Positions 10,635 through 21,431 of a stretch of 64,000 bases of DNA are shown in pieces. Position 1 is the first letter of the stretch. Every line of letters starts with the position of its first letter. A model generated the notes under the pieces. That model had not been told where the DNA came from and did not search any database. It saw nothing but the letters and a program-made list of their open reading frames with translations. The position numbers and the translations under genes were made by a program. This stretch comes from Vicinamibacterales bacterium (lineage in GTDB: Bacteria; Acidobacteriota; Vicinamibacteria; Vicinamibacterales; UBA2999): assembly GCA_035495795.1 (NCBI GenBank), contig DATJFF010000009.1:9394-73393 (forward strand), given 5' to 3'.

Positions 10635-11924
10635 TTACTGAGCGCGGGCGCGCATCGCCGTGATCACACGATTGGTGACCTTCGCGCCGAGCAGCGTCTT
10701 GAGTCCGGCCGGCGAGAGATCGAAGCTCACGGCCTTGGCGCTGTTGATCGCGGCGATGAGGTTCTCCTCGTCCAGGCCAGCGGCGCGCAAATCGATTACG
10801 TCCTTGTTCGTCATCGTCACCGCGGATTCTGCGACCACCGGAGGCGCCGGAGGTGGTCCGGTCGGTGTTGCCGAGCGCTGCGAAACCGGACGCGCCGGCG
10901 TCATCATCTTGGCCTGCTGATAGAGCTCCGCCAGCCGCGCGTACGAGGCGACGCTCTGCTGAATGCGCGCGCCGGCGTCGACGACGTATTTCTCGTTCGG
11001 GTTCTGCTGGACGGCCTGCAGAACGAGGCGATGGGCGAGCGAGAGGCCCGTCGACTGATCCTCCACCTCGTTCGACTCGTAGGCGATGGCCTCGTGCGCG
11101 ACCGCGAGGTTGTGCAGGCGATATGAGTCCTTCTTCCGATCGCGATGCGGCTTGAGCGCCTCCAGCGCCGACAGCCACTCCTGCCAGCGCCGATTTCGCG
11201 CGATGTCGTTCAAGTCGTCCACCTCGTCGCTGCGCGCGAGCAGCACGCGCACTGGTTCGCGGCCCGGCGTCACGCGGCCCGCGGCCCGTCGGACCGCGTT
11301 GTCGATCAGTATGTCCTCGACCGCCGCACGCGACGGCGGACCAGCCTTCACCAGATGCTCTTCCTGCACCGTATAGCGCGCGCTCTCGTCGGCGAGCGGT
11401 GCGCCGCCAGCCCGGCGCTTCACCTCGATGCGGAGCCCTGCCGCGCCGTTGATCACGACCGAGGGCTCGTTGTGTCCGTATTCGTAGACGGGCTCCGTTT
11501 TGTAACGCCCGTCCTTGTCTCGCACTTGTTTGGTGCCGATCTGCCGCTGCTCTGACACGTATTTCGTGCTGCTGCGGCGCGACTCGTTCCATTCCGTCAC
11601 GGTTGCGGTCACGACGAAATCACCTGGGCTGGGCACCACGTCCAGGCGCGAATCGTTGTCAGTCAACTGACGGCCCAACAGCTCGCGCACACGGTCCACG
11701 ACGCGGGCCGGAGCCGGGCTCGTGTTCTGCACCTGCAGCTCCACGGTGCCCGGCGGCAGCAGCAAGGCCGGCGGCACGATTGGCGACAGCGTGATTTCGG
11801 CGGTCTCGGCAAAGATGCCGCGGCGGAACTGGGCGGAGGAAGGAGCCGCAAAGGCGAGCACCACGACGAGTGAGAGGAGCGCGCGTCGTTGAGTCACGAT
11901 CGAGCTGCGGACGGAGAATATCAT
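10635..11924 (-). CDS. Hypothetical exported protein
   Basis: The ORF track extends to 12890, but that part is antisense shadow of the divergent gene. ATG 11924-11922 gives 429 aa with signal peptide LSLVVVLAFAAPSSAQ. A Pro-rich linker (PTGPPPAPP) precedes a ~55-aa C-terminal helical module (DVIDLRAAGLDEENLIAAINSAKAVSFDLSPAGLKTLLGAKV). No family recognised. Confidence 0.7.
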   Translation of the reverse strand: MIFSVRSSIVTQRRALLSLVVVLAFAAPSSAQFRRGIFAETAEITLSPIVPPALLLPPGTVELQVQNTSPAPARVVDRVRELLGRQLTDNDSRLDVVPSPGDFVVTATVTEWNESRRSSTKYVSEQRQIGTKQVRDKDGRYKTEPVYEYGHNEPSVVINGAAGLRIEVKRRAGGAPLADESARYTVQEEHLVKAGPPSRAAVEDILIDNAVRRAAGRVTPGREPVRVLLARSDEVDDLNDIARNRRWQEWLSALEALKPHRDRKKDSYRLHNLAVAHEAIAYESNEVEDQSTGLSLAHRLVLQAVQQNPNEKYVVDAGARIQQSVASYARLAELYQQAKMMTPARPVSQRSATPTGPPPAPPVVAESAVTMTNKDVIDLRAAGLDEENLIAAINSAKAVSFDLSPAGLKTLLGAKVTNRVITAMRARAQ

Positions 11925-11984
11925 CGATGTCCGCGTGAAACGGTGTTCTGAACGATACTTCCAGGTCGTGCAATTAGGCATAAG

Positions 11985-12740
11985 GTGATGCCGATGAAGG
12001 CAATCCGCATTCTGGGTATCGCCCTGCTGGGCGGCACCGTCGGTATGGCGACAACTCTCAGCGCCGGGCGGCAGCTCGCGGCCGCTGCCGGGCAACCGGA
12101 TCCCGTGGCCGCTCTCAAGCAGTCGATTGGCGAGGGCACGAAGAAGCTCGCGCAGTACGAGTGGGTGGAAACCACCGTCATCAAGCTCAAGGGCGAGGAA
12201 AAGACTCGCAAGCAGAATCGCTGCTACTACGGCGCGGACGGCAAGGTGCAGAAGGTCGCGATCGGCGACGCGCCGAAGTCCGAGCAGGGCGCCGGCGGTG
12301 GCCGGCCCGGGAAGAGAGGCGGCGCGGTCAAGGCCAAAATCATCGAGAACAAGAAGGAGGACATGCAGGAGTACATGCAACAGGCCGCGGCGCTGATCCA
12401 CTCGTACGTGCCGCCGCAGCCGGAGCAGATTCAGGCCGTCAAGGATGGTGGCCGCCTCGCGGTGAACCCGCAGCCGGGTGGCAAGGCGCGCATCGAGATG
12501 AAGCAGTACCTCAAGCCGGGCGACAGCCTGACGATCGATCTCGATACCGCCGCCAACCGCTTGCTCGGCCTCGGAGTCAACAGTTACCTGGACAAGCCGG
12601 ACGAACCCGTCACGCTCGCCGTCGAGATGAACTCGCTGCCCGACGGCGCTCTCTACGCAGCGCAGACGACGCTCGACGCCAAGGCCAAGAACATCCAGGT
12701 CGTGATCACCAACTCGGGCCACAAGCCGGTGGCGCGCTGA
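11985..12740 (+). CDS. Hypothetical exported protein
   Basis: 251 aa. The listed start is GTG 11985. ATG 11988 or ATG 11994 (MKAIRIL..., AAGG 8 nt upstream) are at least as likely. Signal peptide, then a beta-rich mature part. Lies 52 nt upstream of the ADOP permease. Confidence 0.7.
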   Translation: MMPMKAIRILGIALLGGTVGMATTLSAGRQLAAAAGQPDPVAALKQSIGEGTKKLAQYEWVETTVIKLKGEEKTRKQNRCYYGADGKVQKVAIGDAPKSEQGAGGGRPGKRGGAVKAKIIENKKEDMQEYMQQAAALIHSYVPPQPEQIQAVKDGGRLAVNPQPGGKARIEMKQYLKPGDSLTIDLDTAANRLLGLGVNSYLDKPDEPVTLAVEMNSLPDGALYAAQTTLDAKAKNIQVVITNSGHKPVAR

Positions 12741-12792
12741 ACCGCGAGTCGGGCTTTCGAACGATCCGGGACCGTCCTCCGTCCAACTCCTG

Positions 12793-15219
12793 ATGCGAAA
12801 CATCCGATACGCTCTGCGCTCCTTCAGCCGGCAGCCGGTCTTCACCCTGGTCGCGGTCCTGACGCTTGCGATCGGCATCGGCGCGAACACGGCGATCTTC
12901 AGCCTGCTGTACCAGATTCTGCTGAAGCCGTTGCCTTACGCCGATCCGGATCGCCTGGTGTTCATCTGGAACAGCTACCCGAAGACGGGCCTGGGTCAGG
13001 CGAGCGTGTCGATCCCGGATTACCTGGACCGCAGGGAGCAGGCTCCAGCGCTGGCTGACGGAACACTCTTTACGCAGCGAAGCGTGAGCCTGGTCGAGGG
13101 TGGACCACCCGAGCAGGTCAGGGCCTTGCGGGTCACCCCCTCGTTCTTCTCGACGCTGGGCCGTGACCCGCTGCTGGGCCGGAGGTTTTCCGAGCAGGAC
13201 GCCCAACCCGGCGCCGATCAGTTCGCGATCCTCACCTACGGCCTGTGGAGCGCGCGTTTTGGCTCGGACCAGGGGATTGTCGGGCGCGACGTCCGCGTCG
13301 ACGGCACGCCCTACCGCGTTGTCGGCGTGCTTCCTGCTGACTTCGAGCTGCCCTCCCGCGATGTGTCCCTGCTGGTGCCCTTTGCCTTTTCCGACCGGGA
13401 TCGGTCCGACCAGAGCCGCGGCAACGAGTTCAGCGCCATGATTGGGCGCCTCGCACCAGGCGCGACGAGGGAGCAGCTGGACGCCCAGATGAAGGCCATC
13501 GTCGGGCGCGTGGCGGCGCGCCTGCCGGAGCGGCGCGGCTTCATCGAGACGAGCGGCTTCACGGGCTACACGGTGCCGATCCGCGATCAGCTCGTCGGCG
13601 ACATGCGGACCCCGCTCCTGGTGCTGCAGATCGGCGTCGCTCTCGTCCTCCTGATCGCCTGCGTGAACGTCGCGAACCTGATGTTGATGCGGGCCACCGG
13701 GCGGCAACGCGAGGTCGCGATCCGCACCGCAGTCGGCGCCGGCCGCGGCCACCTCGTCCGCCAGATGCTGACCGAAGGCCTGGTCCTTGCCGGCCTTGGC
13801 GCGGTGGGCGGGCTGCTCATCGGCTTCGCCGGCCTGCGTGCTCTGATTGCCCTGGTGTCGGCCCAGCTTCCGGTCGCGCCCGACGTTTCGCTGAATCTGC
13901 CGGTCCTGGCGTTCACCATCGTCGTCGCCGTCGCGACCGGATTGGTCTTCGGGCTCGTGCCCGCAGGGTCGGCTATCGGCACCGAGCTGGAAACCACCTT
14001 GAGGGACGAGAGCGGGCGCACATCGGCGGCACGGCACACCAGTGTGGCGCGCGCAGCGCTGGTCGTGTCCGAGGTAGCGTTTGCGGTGATGCTGCTCGTC
14101 GGCGCCGGCCTGATGGTCAAGAGTCTGGCGCGGCTGCAGGAGGTGAACCCGGGCTTCTCGGCGGAGAACGTGTTGACCGCCCAGCTCGCGTTGCCAGGGC
14201 CGCGCTATCCCGATCCCGCGGCGCGCAAGACGTTCTGGACCCGGCTCCTCGACGGGGTTGGCCGTCTCCCGGGTGTGACCGCCGTGGGTCTCACCACCAA
14301 CGTGCCGTTCAACGGCATGGTCGGCTCGGGCTCGTACGACATCGTCGGCTACACCCCGCCCGCCGGTCAGGCTTCCCCGCACGGCCGTCAGGAAATCGTC
14401 GGCGGTGACTACTTCCGGGCGATGCAGATCCCGCTGGTTCGAGGCCGCTTCTTCAGCGATGCCGACGATACCGACAGCCCGCCGGTCGTCGTCATCGACG
14501 AGTATCTGGTCAACCGCTACTTCAAGGACAAGGACCCGATCGGCCAGCAGATTCGCCGCGGAGGGCCGACCTCAACGGCGTTCACAATCATCGGCGTGGC
14601 CGGCACTATCAACACAATCGATCTCGGCCAACCGGTAGAGAAGGAGCGCATCTACTATCCGCTGCGCCAGCAGCCGTTCGCCAGCATGGGCCTGGTCGTC
14701 AAAACCGGCCTCGATCCCACGAGGCTGGTTTCGTCGGTTCGCGGGGCCGTCCGCGCGATCGATCCCGAGCAGCCGATCGCCGACGTACGGACGATGAACC
14801 AGTGGATCAGCCAGTCGCTGCAGACGCGTCAGGCGCCGGCGGTACTGCTGGCGCTCTTCGGTGGTGTCGCGCTGGTGCTGGCCGGCATCGGCATCTACGG
14901 CGTCCTGGCGTTCGGCGTCGCGCAGCGGACGCGCGAATTCGGCATCCGCCAGGCACTTGGCGCCAACCAGGACACGATCGTCGGGATGGTCCTGGCGCAA
15001 GGGGTGAAGACGGCCCTGGCTGGCATGGCCCTCGGGCTCGTCGGCGCGTTGGCGGTGACGCGCTTTCTCGAGAGCCAGCTCTTCGGGGTGGGGACACGCG
15101 ATCCAATCGTCTTTGCGGGAGCGGCTGGAGTTCTGCTTGCGGTCGCCCTCCTGGCCTGCTACCTGCCCGCCCGAGCCACGACCCGGATCGATCCTGTGAC
15201 GGCGTTGCGGGACTCCTGA
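12793..15219 (+). CDS. ADOP-family duplicated orphan permease (MacB/FtsX-like, no adjacent ATPase)
   Basis: 808 aa. The N-terminus MRNIRYALRSFSRQPVFTLVAVLTLAIGIGANTAIFS is the typical family signature. Two copies of TM + large periplasmic domain + FtsX 3-TM bundle. No ABC ATPase gene in the neighbourhood. Confidence 0.9.
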   Translation: MRNIRYALRSFSRQPVFTLVAVLTLAIGIGANTAIFSLLYQILLKPLPYADPDRLVFIWNSYPKTGLGQASVSIPDYLDRREQAPALADGTLFTQRSVSLVEGGPPEQVRALRVTPSFFSTLGRDPLLGRRFSEQDAQPGADQFAILTYGLWSARFGSDQGIVGRDVRVDGTPYRVVGVLPADFELPSRDVSLLVPFAFSDRDRSDQSRGNEFSAMIGRLAPGATREQLDAQMKAIVGRVAARLPERRGFIETSGFTGYTVPIRDQLVGDMRTPLLVLQIGVALVLLIACVNVANLMLMRATGRQREVAIRTAVGAGRGHLVRQMLTEGLVLAGLGAVGGLLIGFAGLRALIALVSAQLPVAPDVSLNLPVLAFTIVVAVATGLVFGLVPAGSAIGTELETTLRDESGRTSAARHTSVARAALVVSEVAFAVMLLVGAGLMVKSLARLQEVNPGFSAENVLTAQLALPGPRYPDPAARKTFWTRLLDGVGRLPGVTAVGLTTNVPFNGMVGSGSYDIVGYTPPAGQASPHGRQEIVGGDYFRAMQIPLVRGRFFSDADDTDSPPVVVIDEYLVNRYFKDKDPIGQQIRRGGPTSTAFTIIGVAGTINTIDLGQPVEKERIYYPLRQQPFASMGLVVKTGLDPTRLVSSVRGAVRAIDPEQPIADVRTMNQWISQSLQTRQAPAVLLALFGGVALVLAGIGIYGVLAFGVAQRTREFGIRQALGANQDTIVGMVLAQGVKTALAGMALGLVGALAVTRFLESQLFGVGTRDPIVFAGAAGVLLAVALLACYLPARATTRIDPVTALRDS

Positions 15220-15339: not shown

Positions 15340-16626
15340 ATGAATGCACTGTTGAAGCTGTTCATGGTCGCCGCCGTGGCTGCAGGATCGGCAACGTCCG
15401 CAGCGGCACAGCCGTCAGAACCCCCTCCCCCTGCTCCAGCCGACACCACGATCGCGTCAGGGCTCGAGCAGTCCGCCGCCAACCCTGAGCAGTCGCCGCC
15501 GACGCGGCAGGCGGCGATCGAGGAGGAGCAGGCGGCGAAAGCGGCAAAGCCGGAGCCCTACACGCCGAGCAGGGCCGAGCTGATCTTTCGCCGGGTGGAC
15601 ACCATCCTGGAAGGCGGGACGCTGCGGTGGCACCCGTTCTTCGACAGTGCCTACAACGGCGGCGGGTTCACGCTCGGCGTCGGCCACGCCAGCTACGTGA
15701 GCGCGTACAACTACATCGACGTGCGCGGCAGCTACTCGATCCTGGGCTACAAGCGCGCCGAGGCGGAGTTCGTCGCGCCGCGGCTGTTCGACCGCCGGGC
15801 GCACTTGTCTGTGCTTGGCGGCTGGCGCGAGGCGACACAGGTCGGGTTCTTCGGCATTGGCACGAACACGTCGATTGACGACCGCACGAACTACCTGTTT
15901 CAGCAGCCGTACGGCTCGGCGCTCCTCACGGTTTTGCCGACCCGCAAGGTCCTGATGCTGCGCGGGGGTGTCGAGTTCACCCAGTGGTCCCAGCAGCCCG
16001 GTGAGGGTTCGTCCCCTTCAGTCGAGGAACGGTACACGCCCGAGACGCTCCCCGGACTGGGTGCGAAAGTGAACTACCTGCACACCCAGGGCACCGTCGG
16101 ACTCGACTGGCGCACCTCTCCAGAGTACAGCCGCCGCGGCGCCTTCCTCGGGGTAACCCTGCACGACTACAAGGATCGGGACAACGCATTCGGCTTTCAG
16201 ATGGTCCAATACGACGGGATTGCGCACGTCCCCATCCTGCGCGAGGCCTGGGTACTCTCGTTCCACGGCCGGGTCCAGACCGCAGTCGAGAAGGACGGTC
16301 AGCAGATCCCGTTCTTCATGCTGCCGTCGCTCGGCGGAGGGTCCAACCTGCGCGCCTACAGCAGCTGGCGGTTCCGCGACGACAACAGTCTGCTGCTCCA
16401 GGCGGAGTGGCGCATCATGGTCAATCGCTACCTCGACCTGGCCTTTTTCTACGATGCCGGCAAAGTCACCGCACACCGGTCGGATCTCGACTTCAACGGG
16501 CTGAAGGACGATTTCGGCGTCGGCGCGCGATTCCACGGGCCGTTCTCGACGCCCCTCCGCATCGAGGTGGCCAGCAGCCGCGAAACCCGATTCAATCTGA
16601 TCTTCGCGATGTCGGCCGCGTTCTGA
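15340..16626 (+). CDS. Omp85/D15-superfamily outer-membrane beta-barrel without room for POTRA repeats
   Basis: 428 aa. Signal peptide, Ala/Pro/Glu-rich linker, then barrel-like sequence with LPSLGGGSNLRAYSSWRFRDDN (the Omp85 LGG..LRGY-type motif) and an aromatic C-terminus ...LIFAMSAAF. Confidence 0.7.
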   Translation: MNALLKLFMVAAVAAGSATSAAAQPSEPPPPAPADTTIASGLEQSAANPEQSPPTRQAAIEEEQAAKAAKPEPYTPSRAELIFRRVDTILEGGTLRWHPFFDSAYNGGGFTLGVGHASYVSAYNYIDVRGSYSILGYKRAEAEFVAPRLFDRRAHLSVLGGWREATQVGFFGIGTNTSIDDRTNYLFQQPYGSALLTVLPTRKVLMLRGGVEFTQWSQQPGEGSSPSVEERYTPETLPGLGAKVNYLHTQGTVGLDWRTSPEYSRRGAFLGVTLHDYKDRDNAFGFQMVQYDGIAHVPILREAWVLSFHGRVQTAVEKDGQQIPFFMLPSLGGGSNLRAYSSWRFRDDNSLLLQAEWRIMVNRYLDLAFFYDAGKVTAHRSDLDFNGLKDDFGVGARFHGPFSTPLRIEVASSRETRFNLIFAMSAAF

Positions 16627-16636
16627 GGTCATTGCC

Positions 16637-18328
16637 ATGTTCATGTCGCATGTCTCGTCACGCGCACGCCGGGCCGGAATCCTGGCGCTGTCGGTTGCCG
16701 CGATTGGCGTGTTCGCTCCTGCCGCCTCGACCCAGAGCGTGCGCTTTTTTGCCGACGATCCGATCGCCCGCGAACCTGAATCGCAGGACGCCTCGAAGGT
16801 GTCCGTCTACGACCACTCGCAGATGTACGAGCTGATCTACAACCTGTTCAGCAACGCCGGCCACGAGCCGAGCGGCCTGCGGGCCAAGAACATCAACACG
16901 ATCGACGAGGTGCCCGACTCGAGCTGGTTCACCAACCGGATCGGGACCAGGACGCTCACGAATGAAGAGCTCGCCCGCGGCCCCAATGTCGGCGCGCCGC
17001 CCGACCCGTCGAAATGGGTGCTGATCCGGGAAAAGATCTCGGGCGTCCACCCGGGCTTCACAGCGACGGACGCCAGGGGCGAGACGTGGTTCCTGGAATT
17101 CGATCCGGATCACTACCCGGAAGGCGCCACGGCAGCCGTCCAGATCGCGACCAAGGTGTTCTGGGCGCTTGGCTACAACCAGGTGGAATCGTTCCTGACG
17201 ACGTTCGATCCCCGCAACGTCTCGGTCGACCCGAAGGCCACCATTCGCCGCCCGAACGGCAAGAGAACGCCGTTCACCCGAGACGACATGAACGCCGTCC
17301 TCGAGACCAGCGCCCGCAACCGGGACGGGAGCTATCGCGTGATCGCCGGCCGGCTGCTGCCCGGCAAGATACTCGGCCCCTACCGGTACGACGGCACGCG
17401 CGGCGACGATCCCAACGATCTCGTGCCGCACGAGCACCGGCGCGAGTTGCGGGGCCTGCGCGTCTTCGCGGCGTGGACGAACCTCACCGACTTCAAGGCC
17501 CAGAACACCCTCGACACCCTCGTCACCGAGAACGGTAAGGCGATCGTCAAGCACTACTTGCAGGACGTCGGCTCTACTTTCGGGATGTGCAACGACTATC
17601 ACGAGTGGGACCTCAGCTGGGAATACTTCTATGAGGGTGGTCCGTCCAAGAAGCGTCTCTTCACCCTCGGGTTCGGGCTGAGCCCGTGGCAGACCGTGCA
17701 CTATGAGGAGTACCCCTCTGTCGGCAAGTTCGAAGGCAAGGTCTTCGATCCGAGAAAATGGCGGCCACAGACGCCAACCCTGGCCTACATGGAGATGCGC
17801 GACGACGACGCGTTCTGGGCGGCGAGGCGGATCGCGGCCTTCACCGATGACATGATCAGGACCGCCGTCCACACCGGGCAGTTCAGCGATCCCGCGGCCG
17901 AGAAGTACCTTGCCGATACGCTGATCCAGCGTCGGGACACGATCAAGAAGATTTACCTGACGGCGGTGAATCCGATCGTCGCCCCGCGCCTCGACGCGAA
18001 GGGACTGACGTTCGAGAACGCGGCGGTCGCTGCCGGCGTTGCCCAGGGCGCCGTGGCGTACCGGGCCTCGTGGATGGTCTTCGACAACGCGACCGGGGCG
18101 ACCCGCCCGCTGGCCGAGACGAAGAGCGAGACGACGACAATCGCGGCGCCGAACGGCCTGCCGTCGACCGGCTTCGTGGCCGTGGACGTCGCCGCGGACA
18201 GTGACACGTACCCGACGTGGAAACAGCCGGTGCGCGCCTACTTCAGCCAGAACGGTGGCAACTGGAAACTGGTCGGCCTCGATCGGCTTCCGGAGAAACC
18301 GAGCGCGGCGCGCGACAAGACGCATTGA
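16637..18328 (+). CDS. Exported protein of unknown function with a protein-kinase-like catalytic-loop pattern
   Basis: 563 aa. Starts 10 nt after the barrel gene. Signal peptide ...VFAPAASTQS. Conserved-looking NTIDEVPDSSWFTNR. Segment AAWTNLTDFKAQNTLD...YLQDVGSTFG resembles D-x-K-x-x-N plus D-x-G. See findings. Confidence 0.75.
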   Translation: MFMSHVSSRARRAGILALSVAAIGVFAPAASTQSVRFFADDPIAREPESQDASKVSVYDHSQMYELIYNLFSNAGHEPSGLRAKNINTIDEVPDSSWFTNRIGTRTLTNEELARGPNVGAPPDPSKWVLIREKISGVHPGFTATDARGETWFLEFDPDHYPEGATAAVQIATKVFWALGYNQVESFLTTFDPRNVSVDPKATIRRPNGKRTPFTRDDMNAVLETSARNRDGSYRVIAGRLLPGKILGPYRYDGTRGDDPNDLVPHEHRRELRGLRVFAAWTNLTDFKAQNTLDTLVTENGKAIVKHYLQDVGSTFGMCNDYHEWDLSWEYFYEGGPSKKRLFTLGFGLSPWQTVHYEEYPSVGKFEGKVFDPRKWRPQTPTLAYMEMRDDDAFWAARRIAAFTDDMIRTAVHTGQFSDPAAEKYLADTLIQRRDTIKKIYLTAVNPIVAPRLDAKGLTFENAAVAAGVAQGAVAYRASWMVFDNATGATRPLAETKSETTTIAAPNGLPSTGFVAVDVAADSDTYPTWKQPVRAYFSQNGGNWKLVGLDRLPEKPSAARDKTH

Positions 18329-18402: not shown

Positions 18403-18422
18403 AGCCCTTCGAGGAAGGGCTA
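18403..18422 (+). terminator. Possible stem-loop terminator after the 563-aa gene
   Basis: AGCCCTTC-GAGG-GAAGGGCT, an 8-bp perfect stem 75 nt after the stop. There is no following T tract, so this is weak. Confidence 0.3.
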
Positions 18423-18692
18423 TGCTCGTCGCGACGCTCTCCAGGCGACGCGCCGGCGCGACGGGCCTCCTGCGTCCTCTGTTGGCATGGGGGATGCCGG
18501 TGACGTCACACGGTGGTCGGTCTTCGGCCCTGGAGGGCGGCATCTTCCGCTACTTCGCGATACGGCAACCGGCGATCACTGAAAGAGTTGCGAGCAGCAC
18601 CGCGGCGTGGCGCTGCTCGAAGGTGCGGGAGGCGACCCCGGCCGGCCGGAGCGTCCCCCGGTTATTCGTGCGCAGTCCGAGGGGCAGCCATC

Positions 18693-21431
18693 ATGAAGAC
18701 GTCAAATCCGGCCATTTTCGACGATGTCAACGAACAGCGCCGCCTGAACGAAGCCCGCGAGAACGGTGTTCCCTGGAAGAAGTGGGGACCGTACCTGAGC
18801 GAGCGGCAGTGGGGAACCGTCCGCGAGGACTACAGCCGCGACGGCAACGCGTGGAACTACTTCTCGCACGACCAGTCCCGCTCGCGGACCTACCGCTGGG
18901 GCGAAGACGGGCTGGCCGGCGTCTCCGATGATGGCCAACGGCTGTGCTTCGGGCTCGCGCTCTGGAACGGCGAGGATCCGATTCTCAAAGAACGGCTGTT
19001 CGGCCTCACCAACAGCGAAGGCAATCACGGCGAAGACGTCAAGGAGTACTACTTTTACGTCGATTCGACGCCGACGCACTCGTACATGAAGTACCTGTAC
19101 AAGTATCCGCAGCGCGCCTTCCCATACGTCGATCTCATCGAGACGAACCGCCGGCGCACGCGCGAGGACTTCGAGTACGAGCTGATCGACACTGGTGTCT
19201 TCGCCGACAACCGCTACTTCGACGTCTTCGTCGAGTACGCCAAGGGCGGCCCCGACGACCTGCTGGTGCAGATCACGATCCACAACCGGGGACCCGAACC
19301 GGCGACGCTGCACCTCCTTCCGACGCTCTGGTTCCGGAACACCTGGTCCTGGGGCGACGATGTCGCCCGCCCCATCCTGCGCGAGGCCGACGGCGCCGTC
19401 GCCGTCGAGCACCAGGAGCTGGGGCCCTACACCCTGGCGTGCGACGGTTCGCCGGATCTGTTGTTCACGGAAAACGAATCGAATAGCGAGCGGCTGTGGG
19501 GAGAGGCCAACCGCACCCCTTACGTCAAGGACGCGTTCCACCGCTACGTGATCGACGGCGATGTCGGCGCCGTCAACCCGGAGCGGACCGGGACCAAGGC
19601 GGCTGCGCACTACATCCTCAGCGTGCCCGCGGAGGGAGCGCAGGTAGTACGGCTGCGGCTGGCGTCCGCCAAAGAGGAGACGCCGTTCGGCGCCTCGTTC
19701 GCGGAGATCTTCGGCAAGCGGCTCGCCGATGCCGACGAGTTCTACGACCGGATCACGCCGTCTTCTCTCAATGCCGATCAGCGCCGCGTCCACCGCCAGG
19801 CGCTGGCCGGCATGCTGTGGACGAAGCAGTACTACTACTACGACGTGGATCGCTGGCTGAAGGAGCGCGGCACCCACCCGCTCGCCGGCACGGGCCACCA
19901 GGCGCCACGGAACGCCGAGTGGTTCCACATGCTCAACGGGGACATCATCTCGATGCCCGACAAGTGGGAGTATCCGTGGTACGCGGCCTGGGACCTGGCG
20001 TTCCACACCCTGGCGTTGTCGCTCGTCGACTTCGACTTCGCCAAGGAGCAGCTGCTCCTGATGCTCCGCTCCCTCTACAGCCACCCCAACGGTCAGATTC
20101 CCGCGTACGAGTGGAACTTCAGCGACGTCAACCCGCCGGTGCACGCCTGGGCCACGCTGTTCCTTTTCACGATGGAGAAGGACCTCGGGCGCGAGGACAT
20201 CGATTTCCTCGAACGCTCGTTCCAGGGGCTGATGCTCAACTTCAACTGGTGGGTGAACCGCAAGGATCCCAATGGCCGCAACGTGTTCGCCGGCGGCTTC
20301 CTCGGCCTCGACAACATCGGCATCTTCGATCGCAGCGCGCGGCTGCCGACCGGCGGCTCGCTGGAGCAGGCGGACGGCACGGCGTGGATGGCGTTCTACT
20401 GCCAGAACATGCTCGAGATGGCGCTGATCCTCGCCGACAGGGACTCGGCCTACGAGGAATTAGCGTTCAAGTTCCTCGAGAACTTCATCTGGATCGCCTA
20501 CGCGATGGATCGGATCGGCGAGCACGGCGACGAGATGTGGGACGACGAAGACGGGTTCTATTACGACGTGCTGCGGCTCCCGAACGGCGACGCATTCAGG
20601 CTGAAAGTGCGCTCGATGGTCGGGCTGCTGCCGCTCTGCGCGAGCACGGTGATCGAGGGCAGCACGGCAGCGAGGCATCCGCGTCTGATGGAGTTGATTG
20701 CGTTGTTCCGGAAGCGGCACCCGCAGGTCGTGGCCAAGGTGGCGCCGACCACTGACGGGTTCGTCGGGGTCAACAACCGCCGCCTGCTGTCGCCGCTCTC
20801 GAAGGAGAAGCTGACCCGGATCCTTGGCTATCTCCTCGACGAGAACGAGTTCCTGAGCCCGTTCGGAATCCGATCGCTGTCACGCGTCCATCGCGATCAC
20901 CCGTTCGTCTTCCGCACCGGCGGCCAGGAGTACAGCGTCCATTACCTGCCGGCCGAGTCGAACACCGGGATGTTCGGCGGCAACTCGAACTGGCGCGGTC
21001 CAATCTGGATGCCGGTCAACGGGCTGATCGTCCGCGGCCTGCTGCACCTCTACTCGTTCTACGGAGACGATTTCACCGTCGAATGCCCGACCGGATCGGG
21101 GCACCGCCTGACGCTGTTCCAGGTGGCGGAGGAGATCACGCGGCGGCTGAGCTCGATGTTCCTGCGCGACGCGAGCGGCAAGCGGCCGGTATACGGCGGG
21201 ACGTCCGTGTTCCAGGACGACCCGCACTGGCGCGACTACATCCTCTTCTACGAGTATTTCCACGGCGACAACGGCGCCGGGCTCGGCGCGAGCCACCAGA
21301 CCGGCTGGACCGGGATCATCGCGCGGCTGATGGACGTCTTCGCGCGGATGAAGCCGGCCGACATCGTCGCCACGCCCATGCGCGAAGTCGCCGAGCGGCT
21401 GGTTCGCGAGCAGGTCGGGGGAAAGCGATAA
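18693..21431 (+). CDS. GH63-like glycoside hydrolase (MGH1-like glucosidase family)
   Basis: The ORF track starts at 18513. ATG 18693 (MKTSNPAIFDD...) is the likely start, giving 912 aa. The N-terminal block PWKKWGPYLSERQWGTVREDYS and the (alpha/alpha)6-type C-terminal half with ...YFHGDNGAGLGASHQTGWT are as I recall for this family. Confidence 0.8.
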   Translation: MKTSNPAIFDDVNEQRRLNEARENGVPWKKWGPYLSERQWGTVREDYSRDGNAWNYFSHDQSRSRTYRWGEDGLAGVSDDGQRLCFGLALWNGEDPILKERLFGLTNSEGNHGEDVKEYYFYVDSTPTHSYMKYLYKYPQRAFPYVDLIETNRRRTREDFEYELIDTGVFADNRYFDVFVEYAKGGPDDLLVQITIHNRGPEPATLHLLPTLWFRNTWSWGDDVARPILREADGAVAVEHQELGPYTLACDGSPDLLFTENESNSERLWGEANRTPYVKDAFHRYVIDGDVGAVNPERTGTKAAAHYILSVPAEGAQVVRLRLASAKEETPFGASFAEIFGKRLADADEFYDRITPSSLNADQRRVHRQALAGMLWTKQYYYYDVDRWLKERGTHPLAGTGHQAPRNAEWFHMLNGDIISMPDKWEYPWYAAWDLAFHTLALSLVDFDFAKEQLLLMLRSLYSHPNGQIPAYEWNFSDVNPPVHAWATLFLFTMEKDLGREDIDFLERSFQGLMLNFNWWVNRKDPNGRNVFAGGFLGLDNIGIFDRSARLPTGGSLEQADGTAWMAFYCQNMLEMALILADRDSAYEELAFKFLENFIWIAYAMDRIGEHGDEMWDDEDGFYYDVLRLPNGDAFRLKVRSMVGLLPLCASTVIEGSTAARHPRLMELIALFRKRHPQVVAKVAPTTDGFVGVNNRRLLSPLSKEKLTRILGYLLDENEFLSPFGIRSLSRVHRDHPFVFRTGGQEYSVHYLPAESNTGMFGGNSNWRGPIWMPVNGLIVRGLLHLYSFYGDDFTVECPTGSGHRLTLFQVAEEITRRLSSMFLRDASGKRPVYGGTSVFQDDPHWRDYILFYEYFHGDNGAGLGASHQTGWTGIIARLMDVFARMKPADIVATPMREVAERLVREQVGGKR

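Follow-up and report, generated by a model that had tools for sequence, protein, structure and literature searches.

Omp85 barrels that lack a periplasmic domain have been described as the 'noNterm' class (Heinz & Lithgow 2014, PMC4104836), with LIC12252/12254/12258 of Leptospira among them (PMC11358297). These barrels are widespread, and their function is reported as unknown (PMC11358297). Two signature motifs characterize the Omp85 barrel, (V/L/M)RG(F/Y/W) in loop 6 and (F/Y)xDxG in strand 13 (PMC11358297). Among proteins with a kinase fold outside the cytosol, Fam20A is a secreted pseudokinase that lacks a cation-binding Glu, which binds ATP in an inverted orientation and without catalysis (PMC7948968).

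Here we describe two co-directional genes from a soil acidobacterium, located on a 64,000-nucleotide stretch of DNA that we refer to as the window. The first encodes a noNterm Omp85 barrel and the second an exported protein with a kinase-like fold, a partnership that was not found in the literature searched. Our preferred explanation, to which we give a probability of roughly 45%, is that the pair forms an autonomous two-gene envelope module in which the kinase-fold protein is a periplasmic nucleotide-dependent transferase at or on its cognate barrel, with nucleotide supplied by neighboring gene products in many lineages.

A two-gene unit with a POTRA-less Omp85 barrel

ORF analysis identified both genes and the 10-nt gap between them, in agreement with an earlier note made on this DNA (Table 1). 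The junction reads TGAGGTCATTGCCATG. Its GAGG, lying over the barrel stop codon, and the 10-nt spacing suggest that translation of the kinase-fold gene is probably coupled to that of the barrel gene. A hairpin past the second gene is a possible end of the two-gene transcript; it is not followed by a T-run, and the terminator scan therefore made no call there.

Table 1. Features of the gene pair, in window coordinates
Feature	Position	Strand	Detail	Basis
Barrel gene, POTRA-less ('noNterm') Omp85 family	15340..16626	+	428 aa	ORF, Pfam, AF2, Foldseek
Predicted signal peptide of barrel protein	15340..15408	+	aa 1-23; inferred cleavage between ...SATSAAA and QPSE	sequence; helix 2-21 in model
Periplasmic helical segment of barrel protein	15505..15612	+	aa 56-91, conserved, not POTRA	model and alignments
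16-stranded beta-barrel	15628..16623	+	aa 97-428	DSSP of AF2 model; Foldseek
Loop-6 Omp85 signature	16348..16359	+	L337-R-A-Y340	sequence, alignments
Strand-13 Omp85 signature (FxDxG)	16447..16461	+	F370-Y-D372-A-G374	sequence
SD-like GAGG	16625..16628	+	over barrel stop codon, 9 nt 5' of gene 2 ATG	sequence
Kinase-fold gene, Sec-exported protein of unnamed family	16637..18328	+	563 aa	ORF, AF2, Foldseek
Predicted signal peptide of kinase-fold protein	16637..16732	+	aa 1-~32; RARR, hydrophobic core, cleavage between AAS and TQ	sequence
N-terminal extension packed on kinase core	16733..17011	+	aa 33-125; DDPI..., DEVPDSSWFTNR with W97 and R101	pLDDT 80-96
Kinase N-lobe and following beta-region	17012..17386	+	aa 126-250	secondary structure, alignments
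Most conserved block	17393..17452	+	G253-T-R255-x-D-D258-P-N260-D261-x-x-P-H265-E-x-R-R269-E-L-R272; hinge/start of helix E	
Catalytic-loop equivalent	17483..17506	+	L283-T-D285-F-K287-A-Q-N290	alignments, model topology
DFG-equivalent	17564..17572	+	D310-V-G312	alignments
C-terminal beta-sandwich, FN3/Ig-like	17975..18286	+	aa 447-550; all-beta	pLDDT 92-96
Hairpin	18403..18421	+	AGCCCTTC-GAG-GAAGGGCT, ~75 nt past gene 2 stop	sequence

The two-gene unit is strictly conserved in order. The earlier note had proposed measuring the co-occurrence of the two genes, and the pair proved syntenic in all sampled sets: the barrel gene lies directly upstream of the kinase-fold gene in 68/68 genome loci, in 63/64 metagenome loci and in 7/7 distant places sampled, in which the kinase-fold protein shares 31-42% identity. 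At one locus (L158) two copies of the whole pair lie in tandem. The genes flanking the pair are otherwise unconserved.

The product of the first gene is an Omp85 barrel of the BamA/TamA type; that it has no POTRA domains agrees with the earlier note. PF01103 (Omp85) matches residues 124-412 with 29.6 bits, above the Pfam cut-off of 24. The AF2 model (pLDDT 69) contains 16 strands by DSSP, and Foldseek places BamA barrels on top (E=2e-11), with a TamA barrel (TMt 0.68) and Sam50 also among the matches; the C-terminal barrel is thus modeled as BamA-like. Both signature motifs are present: in loop 6 the family consensus is LRGY and the window barrel has Ala for Gly, and in strand 13 the alignments show no variation at F370 and G374 and at least 90% conservation of D372. 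Pfam searches returned no POTRA family and no PF03865 (ShlB/FhaC-type) at E<=1, and no match to DUF5982 or any additional domain. The 120 best homologues span 360-460 aa in length, and nearly all carry PF01103 with no further Pfam domain. The BamA, TamA and TpsB classes of Omp85 have between one and seven POTRA domains N-terminal to the barrel. We assign the barrel to the noNterm class because POTRA matches are absent and only ~70 residues, modeled as disorder and two helices, separate the signal peptide from strand 1.

The earlier note held that only a signal peptide and a low-complexity linker precede the barrel. Both are present, the linker at aa 24-55, but they are not the sole content, as they are followed by a conserved segment of ~36 aa with helices at 56-69 and 78-91 in the AF2 model. 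In close homologues R56, I60, E80, F83 and D87 are invariant, and R56, K67, P73 and E80 stay conserved at 90% or more even where identity drops to about 20-40%. This segment is a candidate plug or docking element.

Fold and site residues of the exported protein

The kinase-fold protein has no sequence match in Pfam, NCBIfam or PDB. In its AF2 model (pLDDT 89.9, pTM 0.88) this Sec-exported protein is composed of an N-terminal wrap, a HipA/CtkA/Fam20-like kinase-fold domain and an FN3-like sandwich. In Foldseek searches against PDB the significant matches are all kinases, which agrees with the kinase-like fold suspected from the sequence. The best is Fam20 (4kqb; E=1.4e-6, prob 1.0), at a TM of only 0.29/0.37 and 9% identity, indicating the same fold class and a different family; CtkA of H. 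pylori follows with E=4e-4 and TMt up to 0.55. Further matches include Fam20C/A, VPS34 (PI3K-type), alpha-kinase and SidJ, and in BFVD phage PI3K/PI4K-domain proteins and Ser/Thr kinases. A monobody (FN3) chain was also matched (prob 0.99, 171 columns). The modeled domain is bilobal as in PKL folds, with a beta-rich N-lobe containing helix C and a helical C-lobe. Strands 127-132, 140-144 and 150-155 form beta1-beta3 of the N-lobe, which carries the Gly-rich K133-x-x-G-x-x-P-G-F and has E154 in beta3; helices follow at 163-178 (helix C) and 269-281.

Profile searches place the protein outside named families. The HipA profiles PF07804/PF20613 gave no match to the window protein at E<=10, the Fam20 profile PF06702 gave no Pfam match, and hhalign against the single sequence of E. 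coli HipA produced no significant alignment. Relatives do show sub-threshold HipA_2 (10/62) and HipA_C (8/62) matches confined to the N-lobe, the best scoring 18 bits against cut-offs of 27-30.5. PADLOC defense models matched neither window protein at E<=0.01. The family is highly conserved and abundant in soil Acidobacteriota, comprising 3702 clusters at 50% identity and >7800 at 90%, and is absent from Pfam and NCBIfam.

A basic and hydrophobic N-terminus, read as a signal peptide, is found in 85/91 full-length representatives, and a conserved (Q)(K/P)F(Y/F)PDDP motif starts straight after the predicted cleavage site. In the N-terminal extension R101 is conserved in 122/123 and W97 in 120/125 representatives.

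These features bear on the possibility that the kinase-fold protein is translocated or anchored by the POTRA-less barrel so as to act on the cell surface or in the medium, in a system resembling type Vd or two-partner secretion but working in trans, with the mature N-terminus QKFYPDDP... as recognition signal. Strict pairing and gene order, the conserved motif beginning right at the cleavage site and the FN3-like C-terminal sandwich, typical of extracellular proteins, are consistent with export, and translocators such as FhaC and PlpD belong to the Omp85 superfamily (discussed for noNterm proteins in PMC11358297). However, the barrel is closest to the insertases BamA, TamA and Sam50, with no FhaC-type chain in the Foldseek top 50, and it has both lid-lock motifs, in L6 and beta13; the closed dome has been argued to speak against transport (PMC11358297). 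The partner is a compact three-domain globular protein rather than a beta-helix passenger, and TPS, ShlB and Haemagg_act gave no match at E<=1. ATP would be even scarcer outside the cell, where the inner-membrane nucleotide carriers encoded near the pair in relatives (see below) would be pointless. We consider export unlikely. The two-partner-type analogy of the earlier note is unsupported on the same points: the barrel is of the insertase type and has no POTRA to recognize a TpsA, and the partner is globular without a TPS domain.

The D-x-K-x-x-N and D-x-G motifs reported earlier correspond to the catalytic-loop and DFG equivalents of Table 1, with D310 25 residues past D285. In the model, helix E leads into the catalytic-loop equivalent, strand 291-298, a turn, strand 301-308 and D310. 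Judged from sequence and model, the protein has the PKL catalytic loop (H/Y)xDxxxxN with Leu for His, two strands and a DFG-type Asp; the beta3 Lys-alphaC Glu ion pair is absent (E154, V168). The pattern D.K..N.{15,30}D.G occurs once in the 77,405 residues of the window's six-frame ORFs. We base the weight of the motif on its conservation rather than on this rarity. Among 150 cluster representatives (clustering at 50% identity), D285 is conserved in 85%, K/R287 in 82%, N290 in 88%, D310 in 94% and G312 in 81%, and D-K-N-D-G is retained in 119/120 close homologues. Within the clade to which the window protein belongs (136 sequences that share 49-93% identity), K133, G136, P139, G140, D285, K287, N290, D293, D310, V311, G312 and S313 are at least 98% identical, a level reached by only 61/310 positions. 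The check on the D, K, N and D residues called for in the earlier note was thus positive, and of the outcomes that it had set against its own reading, namely an unrelated fold, unconserved motif residues and lost synteny, all were looked for and none was found.

The family consensus is KxxGxxPGF ... LKFD ... AE (helix C) ... NHxDx[KR]xxN ... IDFGS. No clear beta3 lysine had been seen in the window protein, and position 154 is indeed Glu, in contrast to Lys in 72% of representatives. In helix C the wider family has Glu/Asp, and the window protein has Val at position 168. The catalytic-loop His of the consensus is Leu in the window clade. This clade as a whole has jointly lost all three residues, the beta3 Lys, the alphaC Glu and the loop His, in line with the earlier suggestion of an atypical kinase or pseudokinase. 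We regard the protein as atypical rather than decaying, because K133, D285, K287, N290, D310 and G312 stay almost invariant, and judged from the alignments the clade is a derived, atypical version of the family. K133 in the Gly-rich region is near-universal and may substitute for the beta3 Lys. A site retained without the Lys/Glu pair and the loop His suggests that this clade probably binds nucleotide non-canonically, for which WNK, Fam20A, SelO and SidJ are precedents.

Conservation in the family is highest at R255, D258, D261, H265, R269, R272, R101 and R432, which are non-classical for kinases, an observation that counts against our preferred explanation. In the central block the counts are R255 141/141, D258 143/143, D261 142/144, H265 144/147, R269 147/147 and R272 146/147; the block G253-R272 may bind substrate or ligand. 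Counting against that explanation are also the Lys/Glu/His loss, which is the classical pseudokinase pattern, the modest Foldseek TM and the hhalign null result.

This raises the possibility of a non-catalytic pseudokinase serving as a scaffold or as a sensor of nucleotide or ligand; it would replace the POTRA domains and regulate or assist the insertase barrel for a subset of outer-membrane clients. The joint loss in the window clade would fit such a role, as would separate losses of the beta3 Lys (in L155 and in PKL2 of L158), a subfamily with degenerate catalytic residues (P0137, P0153, P0207, P0269) and the location of most invariant residues outside the classical motifs. Fam20A provides a precedent (PMC7948968), and Sam50 is functional without its POTRA domain (PMC4104836). 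Yet D285, K287, N290, D310, G312 and K133 are kept at 98% or more in the 136 clade sequences, which is unexpected for an unused pocket, and the TLC, PPK2 and Ppx neighbors described below suggest nucleotide turnover beyond mere binding. We find this alternative rather doubtful.

Genomic neighbors and a possible role

In relatives, TLC/NTT ATP/ADP-transporter genes were newly found within 6 kb of the pair in 28/158 loci, a raw count from which the genome background rate is not subtracted. Across these loci the kinase-fold protein spans 31-75% identity. The TLC genes match PF03219 above the gathering cut-off (56, 64, 36 and 26 bits); about half are no more than 600 nt away from the module, where several arrangements occur, and in three loci (L155-157) the TLC gene overlaps the kinase-fold gene by 4 nt. 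The next most recurrent neighbors are Ppx/GppA (10 loci), a membrane Pkinase (Ser/Thr; 9) and PPK2 (7). The TLC link gives a hint of reactions outside the cytoplasm that depend on nucleotides.

Under our preferred explanation of a periplasmic transferase, the kinase-fold protein would be periplasmic and would work at or on the cognate barrel, with D285 as putative catalytic base, N290 and D310 as metal ligands, and K287 and K133 in contact with phosphates. Its substrate would belong to the outer membrane or the periplasm, and the neighboring TLC/NTT carriers would supply or exchange nucleotide across the inner membrane in many lineages. A more specific version, which we think improbable, is that in Acidobacteriota, and possibly other diderms, ATP exported, or exchanged for ADP, by TLC/NTT carriers feeds periplasmic modification of proteins or lipids, carried out by a barrel-docked HipA/Fam20-like kinase that phosphorylates or nucleotidylates an outer-membrane component. 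Counting against the preferred explanation are the textbook absence of ATP from the periplasm, the lack of a TLC-like gene within the 64 kb of the window, and the flanks of about 80% of loci, which have no TLC gene.

The same neighbors could instead serve nucleotide scavenging: extracellular nucleotides would enter through the barrel, be bound or re-phosphorylated by the kinase-fold protein in the periplasm, and then be imported by TLC/NTT carriers. Characterized NTTs are importers, and free-living bacteria have NTTs whose role was left open (PMC5381601). TLC genes adjoin the module in some loci, and the many invariant Arg/His of the kinase-fold protein could bind phosphates. However, no solute channel is known among BamA-type Omp85 barrels that carry lid-lock motifs, a periplasmic kinase would still need a phosphoryl donor, and most loci lack TLC neighbors. 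Scavenging is therefore a very remote prospect.

A periplasmic kinase fed by TLC carriers, if it exists, would be a bacterial counterpart of eukaryotic secretory-pathway kinases and would give a function to noNterm Omp85 and to the NTTs of free-living bacteria. This small operon would make three questions testable: the role of POTRA-less Omp85, the reason for the retention of NTT/TLC carriers in free-living bacteria and whether kinase-fold enzymes operate in the bacterial periplasm. Naming the kinase-fold family would clear a sizeable block of 'hypothetical proteins', and the window clade is a natural experiment in kinase evolution, with the Lys-Glu pair gone and the other site residues strictly kept.

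Comparison with known systems

The window barrel shares with noNterm Omp85 the PF01103 domain, a size of about 400-450 aa, the lack of a periplasmic domain and the L6 and beta13 lid-lock motifs. It differs in lacking DUF5982, in its own two-helix N-terminal segment and in its obligate downstream exported kinase-fold gene.

Two-partner secretion (TpsB/FhaC with TpsA) and type Vd (PlpD) likewise couple an Omp85-superfamily barrel to an exported partner, here an enzymatically plausible one, whereas the window pair has no POTRA, no TPS domain (Haemagg_act, no Pfam match at E<=1) and no ShlB-type match, and its barrel is nearest BamA/TamA. Membership in two-partner secretion is not supported, as neither a TPS/beta-helix partner nor a PF03865 barrel with POTRA is present. 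In TAM (TamA and TamB) and BAM, as in the window, the gene for an insertase-type barrel directly precedes that for a Sec-dependent envelope partner. Three POTRA domains are present in TamA, and TamB belongs to the AsmA-like/DUF490 proteins, whereas the window barrel lacks POTRA domains and its partner is kinase-like in fold with no AsmA-like/DUF490 Pfam match, so the pair was not assigned to TAM.

The atypical Ser/Thr kinases HipA, HipT and CtkA, of which CtkA is secreted, share with the window protein a kinase-like fold, D-x-x-x-x-N and a downstream metal-binding Asp. The window protein differs in ~250 extra residues (the N-terminal wrap and the FN3-like domain), a signal peptide, the absence of an antitoxin partner, the missing beta3 Lys of its clade and relatives that stay below Pfam thresholds. 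Unlike Fam20, it comes from a bacterium and has an outer-membrane barrel as its partner, and the two kinase-fold families have no sequence-level relationship; the Golgi has nucleotide transporters, whereas for the periplasm only the TLC neighborhood suggests one. With Fam20C, Fam20B and Fam20A, the window family nevertheless shares a kinase fold placed outside the cytosol and the coexistence of active and altered-site members.

The gene pair and its conservation

The arrangement described in the earlier note, a barrel gene followed directly by a gene for an exported kinase-like protein, was confirmed, and the window contains one such pair (see the table). The junction between the two genes reads ...TTC TGA GGTCATTGCC ATG, so that 10 nt separate the genes, and the barrel stop codon shares bases with an SD-like GAGG. 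The GC content of the window is ~0.64-0.70, and a scan of the window for consensus promoters and terminators gave nothing above the shuffled expectation. The genes that flank the pair in the window are unrelated to it; beyond the hydrolase gene downstream lies one for an FAD-linked oxidase. Paralogs of the upstream ADOP-type permease occur in 13 related loci. As their position is not fixed, they represent an abundant Acidobacteriota family rather than a part of the module.

The hydrolase ORF begins with GTG and a 60-aa Arg/Ala-rich N-terminal extension, and translation probably starts instead at Met 61 (MKTSNPAIF...), at ~position 18693. Two further ORFs overlap on opposite strands. One encodes an exported 251-aa protein without a Pfam match, and the C-terminal two-thirds of the other look like a real exported protein (putative signal peptide, ...AFAAPSSAQ).

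Our results clearly indicate that the pair is syntenic elsewhere. A scan of species-representative genomes, which found close relatives only, gave 68 loci, all from Acidobacteriota MAGs (mostly Vicinamibacterales, one Bryobacteraceae). In 68 of 68, the kinase-like gene is immediately preceded by a barrel homolog in the same orientation, and the other window neighbors are conserved in the closest relative only. Among 80 metagenome loci, 64 have at least 300 nt of upstream sequence, and the barrel gene is directly upstream in 63 of these; the single exception has just 332 nt. Distant members (31-42% identity) were found in seven independent places, with a barrel homolog directly upstream or overlapping in all. 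The pair also duplicates as a unit, since one locus (L158) carries two tandem pairs. Some MAGs contain two unlinked pairs.

At one locus (L069), a single 843-aa ORF consists of a TLC-like N-terminal half (tblastn E=2e-10) and an Omp85 barrel; this topologically odd ORF may stem from loss of a stop codon or from misassembly. At the same locus, a gene for a purple-acid-phosphatase-like metallophosphoesterase overlaps the stop codon of the kinase-like gene.

Features of the window and of related loci (L-numbers)
Feature	Location	Strand	Remark
Omp85 barrel gene	window 15340..16626	+	428 aa
Kinase-like gene	window 16637..18328	+	563 aa
GC-rich hairpin without T-run	window 18403-18421		3' of kinase-like gene; from sequence
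ADOP-type MacB_PCD/FtsX ABC permease	window 12793..15219	+	directly upstream of barrel gene
GH63/MGH1-like glycoside hydrolase ORF	window 18513..21431	+	downstream of pair
ORF for exported 251-aa protein	window 11985..12740	+
Long overlapping ORF	window 10635..12890	-
Tandem barrel and kinase-like pairs	L158:4523-7737 and L158:7965-11159		whole pair duplicated; also L159
Two tandem Omp85 barrels before one kinase-like gene	L155:3412-5999		same in L155-157
TLC-barrel ORF	L069:2494-5025	+
Metallophosphoesterase gene	L069:6689-8095	+
TLC/NTT gene	L155:7698-9077	+	PF03219; 24 further loci
TLC/NTT gene	L155:9001-11205	-	PF03219
TLC/NTT gene	L086:834-3662	-	PF03219
TLC/NTT gene	L102:6721-8118	+	PF03219
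Ppx/GppA, PPK2 and Ser/Thr kinase neighbors	L036:7741-9339	+
	L015:2549-3469	-
	L059:7652-8647	-
	L031:2773-4542	-
	L059:8879-10534	-

The barrel protein

The first protein matched Omp85 in Pfam (PF01103, residues 124-412, 29.6 bits versus a cut-off of 24) and no POTRA domain at E<=1, which bears out the proposal of a POTRA-less Omp85 barrel. NCBIfam gave only sub-threshold Omp85 and BamA matches. The 120 best database homologs are all 360-460 aa long, with PF01103 as the sole domain in nearly all. An AlphaFold2 model built with homologs from databases was of moderate confidence (pLDDT 69); it consists of a signal-peptide helix, then disordered sequence rich in Pro, Ala and Gln (aa 24-55), a pair of short helices (56-69, 78-91) and 16 beta-strands. 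Foldseek matched this model to BamA barrels (E=2e-11), the TamA barrel (TMt 0.68) and Sam50, with no FhaC-type chain among the top 50 matches. Both Omp85 signatures, as defined in PMC11358297, are present: L337-R-A-Y340 in loop 6 (family consensus LRGY) and F370-Y-D-A-G374 in strand 13.

The earlier note saw only a low-complexity linker before the barrel. The linker is there, and the description is slightly incomplete because the two-helix segment that follows is conserved. R56, I60, E80, F83 and D87 are invariant in close homologs, and R56, K67, P73 and E80 are at least 90% conserved out to distant pairs.

The kinase-like partner and its active site

The 563-aa protein had no match in Pfam, NCBIfam or the PDB sequences. 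A search of PDB chains with this sequence and with a 62-sequence profile returned armadillo-repeat noise only and nothing relevant, and PADLOC gave no match to defense systems for either protein of the pair. The family is large, with >7800 matching clusters at 90% identity, all "hypothetical." In an exhaustive HMMER search, 3702 cluster representatives (50% identity) matched at E<=1e-3, and 1028 of these at E<=1e-30; the source names for ten distant clusters were all "hypothetical protein" or none.

The AlphaFold2 model from the 62-sequence alignment is confident (pLDDT 89.9, pTM 0.88). A signal-peptide helix and an extension (aa 33-125) packed on the core precede a beta-rich lobe with strands 127-132, 140-144 and 150-155, a long helix (163-178) and more strands. 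An unstructured yet confidently placed loop (248-268) leads to a helical lobe starting with helix 269-281, and the C-terminal domain (447-550) is all-beta. Every significant Foldseek match in the PDB was a kinase, in agreement with the kinase-like fold suspected from the motif: the Caenorhabditis elegans Fam20 Golgi casein kinase (4kqb; E=1.4e-6, prob 1.0), Helicobacter pylori CtkA (E=4e-4, TM up to 0.55 of target), and also Fam20C, Fam20A, VPS34, an alpha-kinase, SidJ and a bacterial kinase complex (7vkb). Query-normalized TM-scores were low (~0.3), partly because ~250 query residues fall outside the kinase core. Matches in a viral structure library were phage PI3K/PI4K-domain proteins and Ser/Thr kinases. 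In individual Pfam scans of 62 relatives, HipA_2 (10 relatives, best E=8e-4) and HipA_C (8 relatives) matched the N-lobe below threshold, and no other family recurred in more than two. On the strength of these Foldseek, viral-library and HipA-type matches, the kinase fold assigned to the predicted structure is solid. The partner does not qualify as a member of the HipA or Fam20 families. An hhalign comparison of the family profile with the single sequence of Escherichia coli HipA gave no significant alignment, so the putative equivalence of the active-site residues to HipA D309/N314/D332 is drawn only from motif, topology and fold search.

The family consensus is K-x-x-G-x-x-P-G-F in the Gly-rich loop, x-L-K-F-D in strand 3 and A-T-G-A-E in helix C, followed downstream by W-L-N-H-x-D-x-[KR]-x-x-N-T-L-D and H-Y-L-I-D-F-G-S. 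In the model these run in the order helix, H-x-D-x-x-x-x-N, strand, turn, strand, DFG, a hallmark of protein-kinase-like enzymes. Across 150 representatives, conservation is 85% for D285, 82% for K/R287, 88% for N290, 94% for D310, 81% for G312 and 72% for K154; K133 is a near-universal Lys of the family. The most invariant residues (R101, G179, R255, D258, D261, H265, R269, R272, D391, W394 and R432) sit outside the classical kinase motifs. Rich in Arg, Asp and His, this set may serve to bind an anionic substrate or a metal.

In the close homologs that form the window's clade, three positions have changed together: 154 is E/Q/S/A rather than Lys, 168 is V/I/L rather than Glu/Asp, and 283 is Leu rather than His (seen in 120 close homologs and in ~136 sequences taken from loci, with identities as low as 49%). 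The lack of a clear beta-3 lysine, pointed out in the earlier note, holds for the whole clade, and this Lys was lost more than once, also in the L155 protein and the second L158 protein. The motif residues D285, K287, N290 and D310 are retained throughout the clade, as are K133 and G312. In the clade, identity reaches 98% or more at just 61 of 310 core positions, and these include the Gly-rich loop, the D-V-G-S-x-F-G block and the residues of the catalytic loop. Judged from the alignment, a decaying site would not look like this, and such strict conservation argues for a pocket that would be altered but functional. A non-catalytic pseudokinase standing in for the POTRA domains, which the changes at 154, 168 and 283 would allow and the strict conservation speaks against, is unlikely.

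Family members of 685-1158 aa also occur, and fusion to a barrel or TLC domain was ruled out for them. A minority subfamily with degenerate catalytic residues includes long variants with a shared C-terminal extension. Four of these (P0137, P0153, P0207 and P0269; 742-1158 aa; loci L070 and L151), in which the extension has no Pfam match and the key positions read, for example, S-I-A-H-L-R-N-D-S, may form a pseudoenzyme subfamily.

The N terminus of the window protein consists of R-A-R-R, a hydrophobic core and A-A-S|T-Q. A basic and hydrophobic N terminus is found in 85 of 91 full-length representatives, immediately followed by a conserved (Q)(K/P)F(Y/F)PDDP motif, and nine of the 91 have a lipobox-like motif. 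Tat export, raised by R-A-R-R, was rejected because the family does not conserve the twin-Arg context, so the export route is likely Sec.

Neighboring genes and a proposed envelope module

Clustering of flanking ORFs gave no universal third gene. Leaving aside the ADOP permeases, which are ubiquitous in Acidobacteriota, the most recurrent neighbors by far are TLC/NTT ATP/ADP transporters (PF03219 scores of 56, 64, 36, 26 and 23 bits versus a cut-off of 21), some with C-terminal HEAT repeats. As a raw count, a TLC-like gene lies within the flanks (up to 6 kb) of 28 of 158 loci; kinase-like identities at these loci are 31-75%. It is downstream in 15 of the 114 loci with at least 1.5 kb of downstream sequence and upstream in 11 of the 95 with at least 1.5 kb upstream. 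About half of the TLC neighbors are no more than 600 nt away from the module. Some TLC genes follow it directly in the same orientation, some are divergent from the barrel gene, and some loci show both layouts; in L155-157 there is a 4-nt overlap between the TLC gene and the stop codon of the kinase-like gene. This bias toward adjacency and the varied arrangements argue against a chance association. The 64-kb window contains no TLC-like gene, and for this organism the link therefore comes by inference from the family.

Genes for Ppx/GppA also recur, at 10 loci (directly downstream in L036), as do those for a polytopic-membrane Ser/Thr kinase, at 9 loci, and for PPK2, at 7. The Ser/Thr kinase gene sometimes shares an operon with TLC, the order in L059 being TLC, Pkinase, PPK2. 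The theme of these neighbors is phosphate and nucleotide metabolism. A nucleotide-scavenging route, with which the TLC adjacency would fit, is very improbable.

Our preferred reading, with a probability of roughly 0.45, is an envelope module in which a Sec-exported HipA/CtkA/Fam20-like kinase-fold protein would work jointly with its dedicated BamA-type POTRA-less barrel, and in which TLC/NTT carriers would deliver periplasmic nucleotides in many lineages. From motif position and conservation, D285 would be the base, N290 and D310 the metal ligands, and K287 and K133 the phosphate contacts, and proteins of the window's clade would use nucleotides in a non-canonical way. WNK, SelO and SidJ are precedents for altered kinase sites. 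Another is Fam20A, which lacks the cation-binding Glu and binds ATP inverted (PMC7948968). For ATP-dependent enzymes in the periplasm, a precedent exists in Lig E, an ATP-dependent ligase targeted to this compartment (bioRxiv 10.64898/2026.03.22.713542). Periplasmic ATP-dependent modification is an improbable minority reading that would be categorically new if true.

The components of the module are of known kinds, a noNterm Omp85 protein and a PKL fold, and neither Pfam nor NCBIfam has a name for the kinase-fold family. We found no description of the obligate barrel-kinase pairing or of the TLC link in the literature searched. The NTTs of free-living bacteria are described as functionally unexplained (PMC5381601), as are the noNterm Omp85 proteins (PMC11358297).

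The analogy to two-partner secretion made in the earlier note fails, since POTRA domains, a TPS domain and an FhaC-type barrel belong to that system and the window pair has none of the three. Set between these differences and the constant pairing, a barrel that exports or surface-displays its kinase-fold partner is rather unlikely. The barrel architecture is the one that Heinz and Lithgow class as noNterm Omp85 (PMC4104836), and we rate the module among the Omp85-plus-partner systems.
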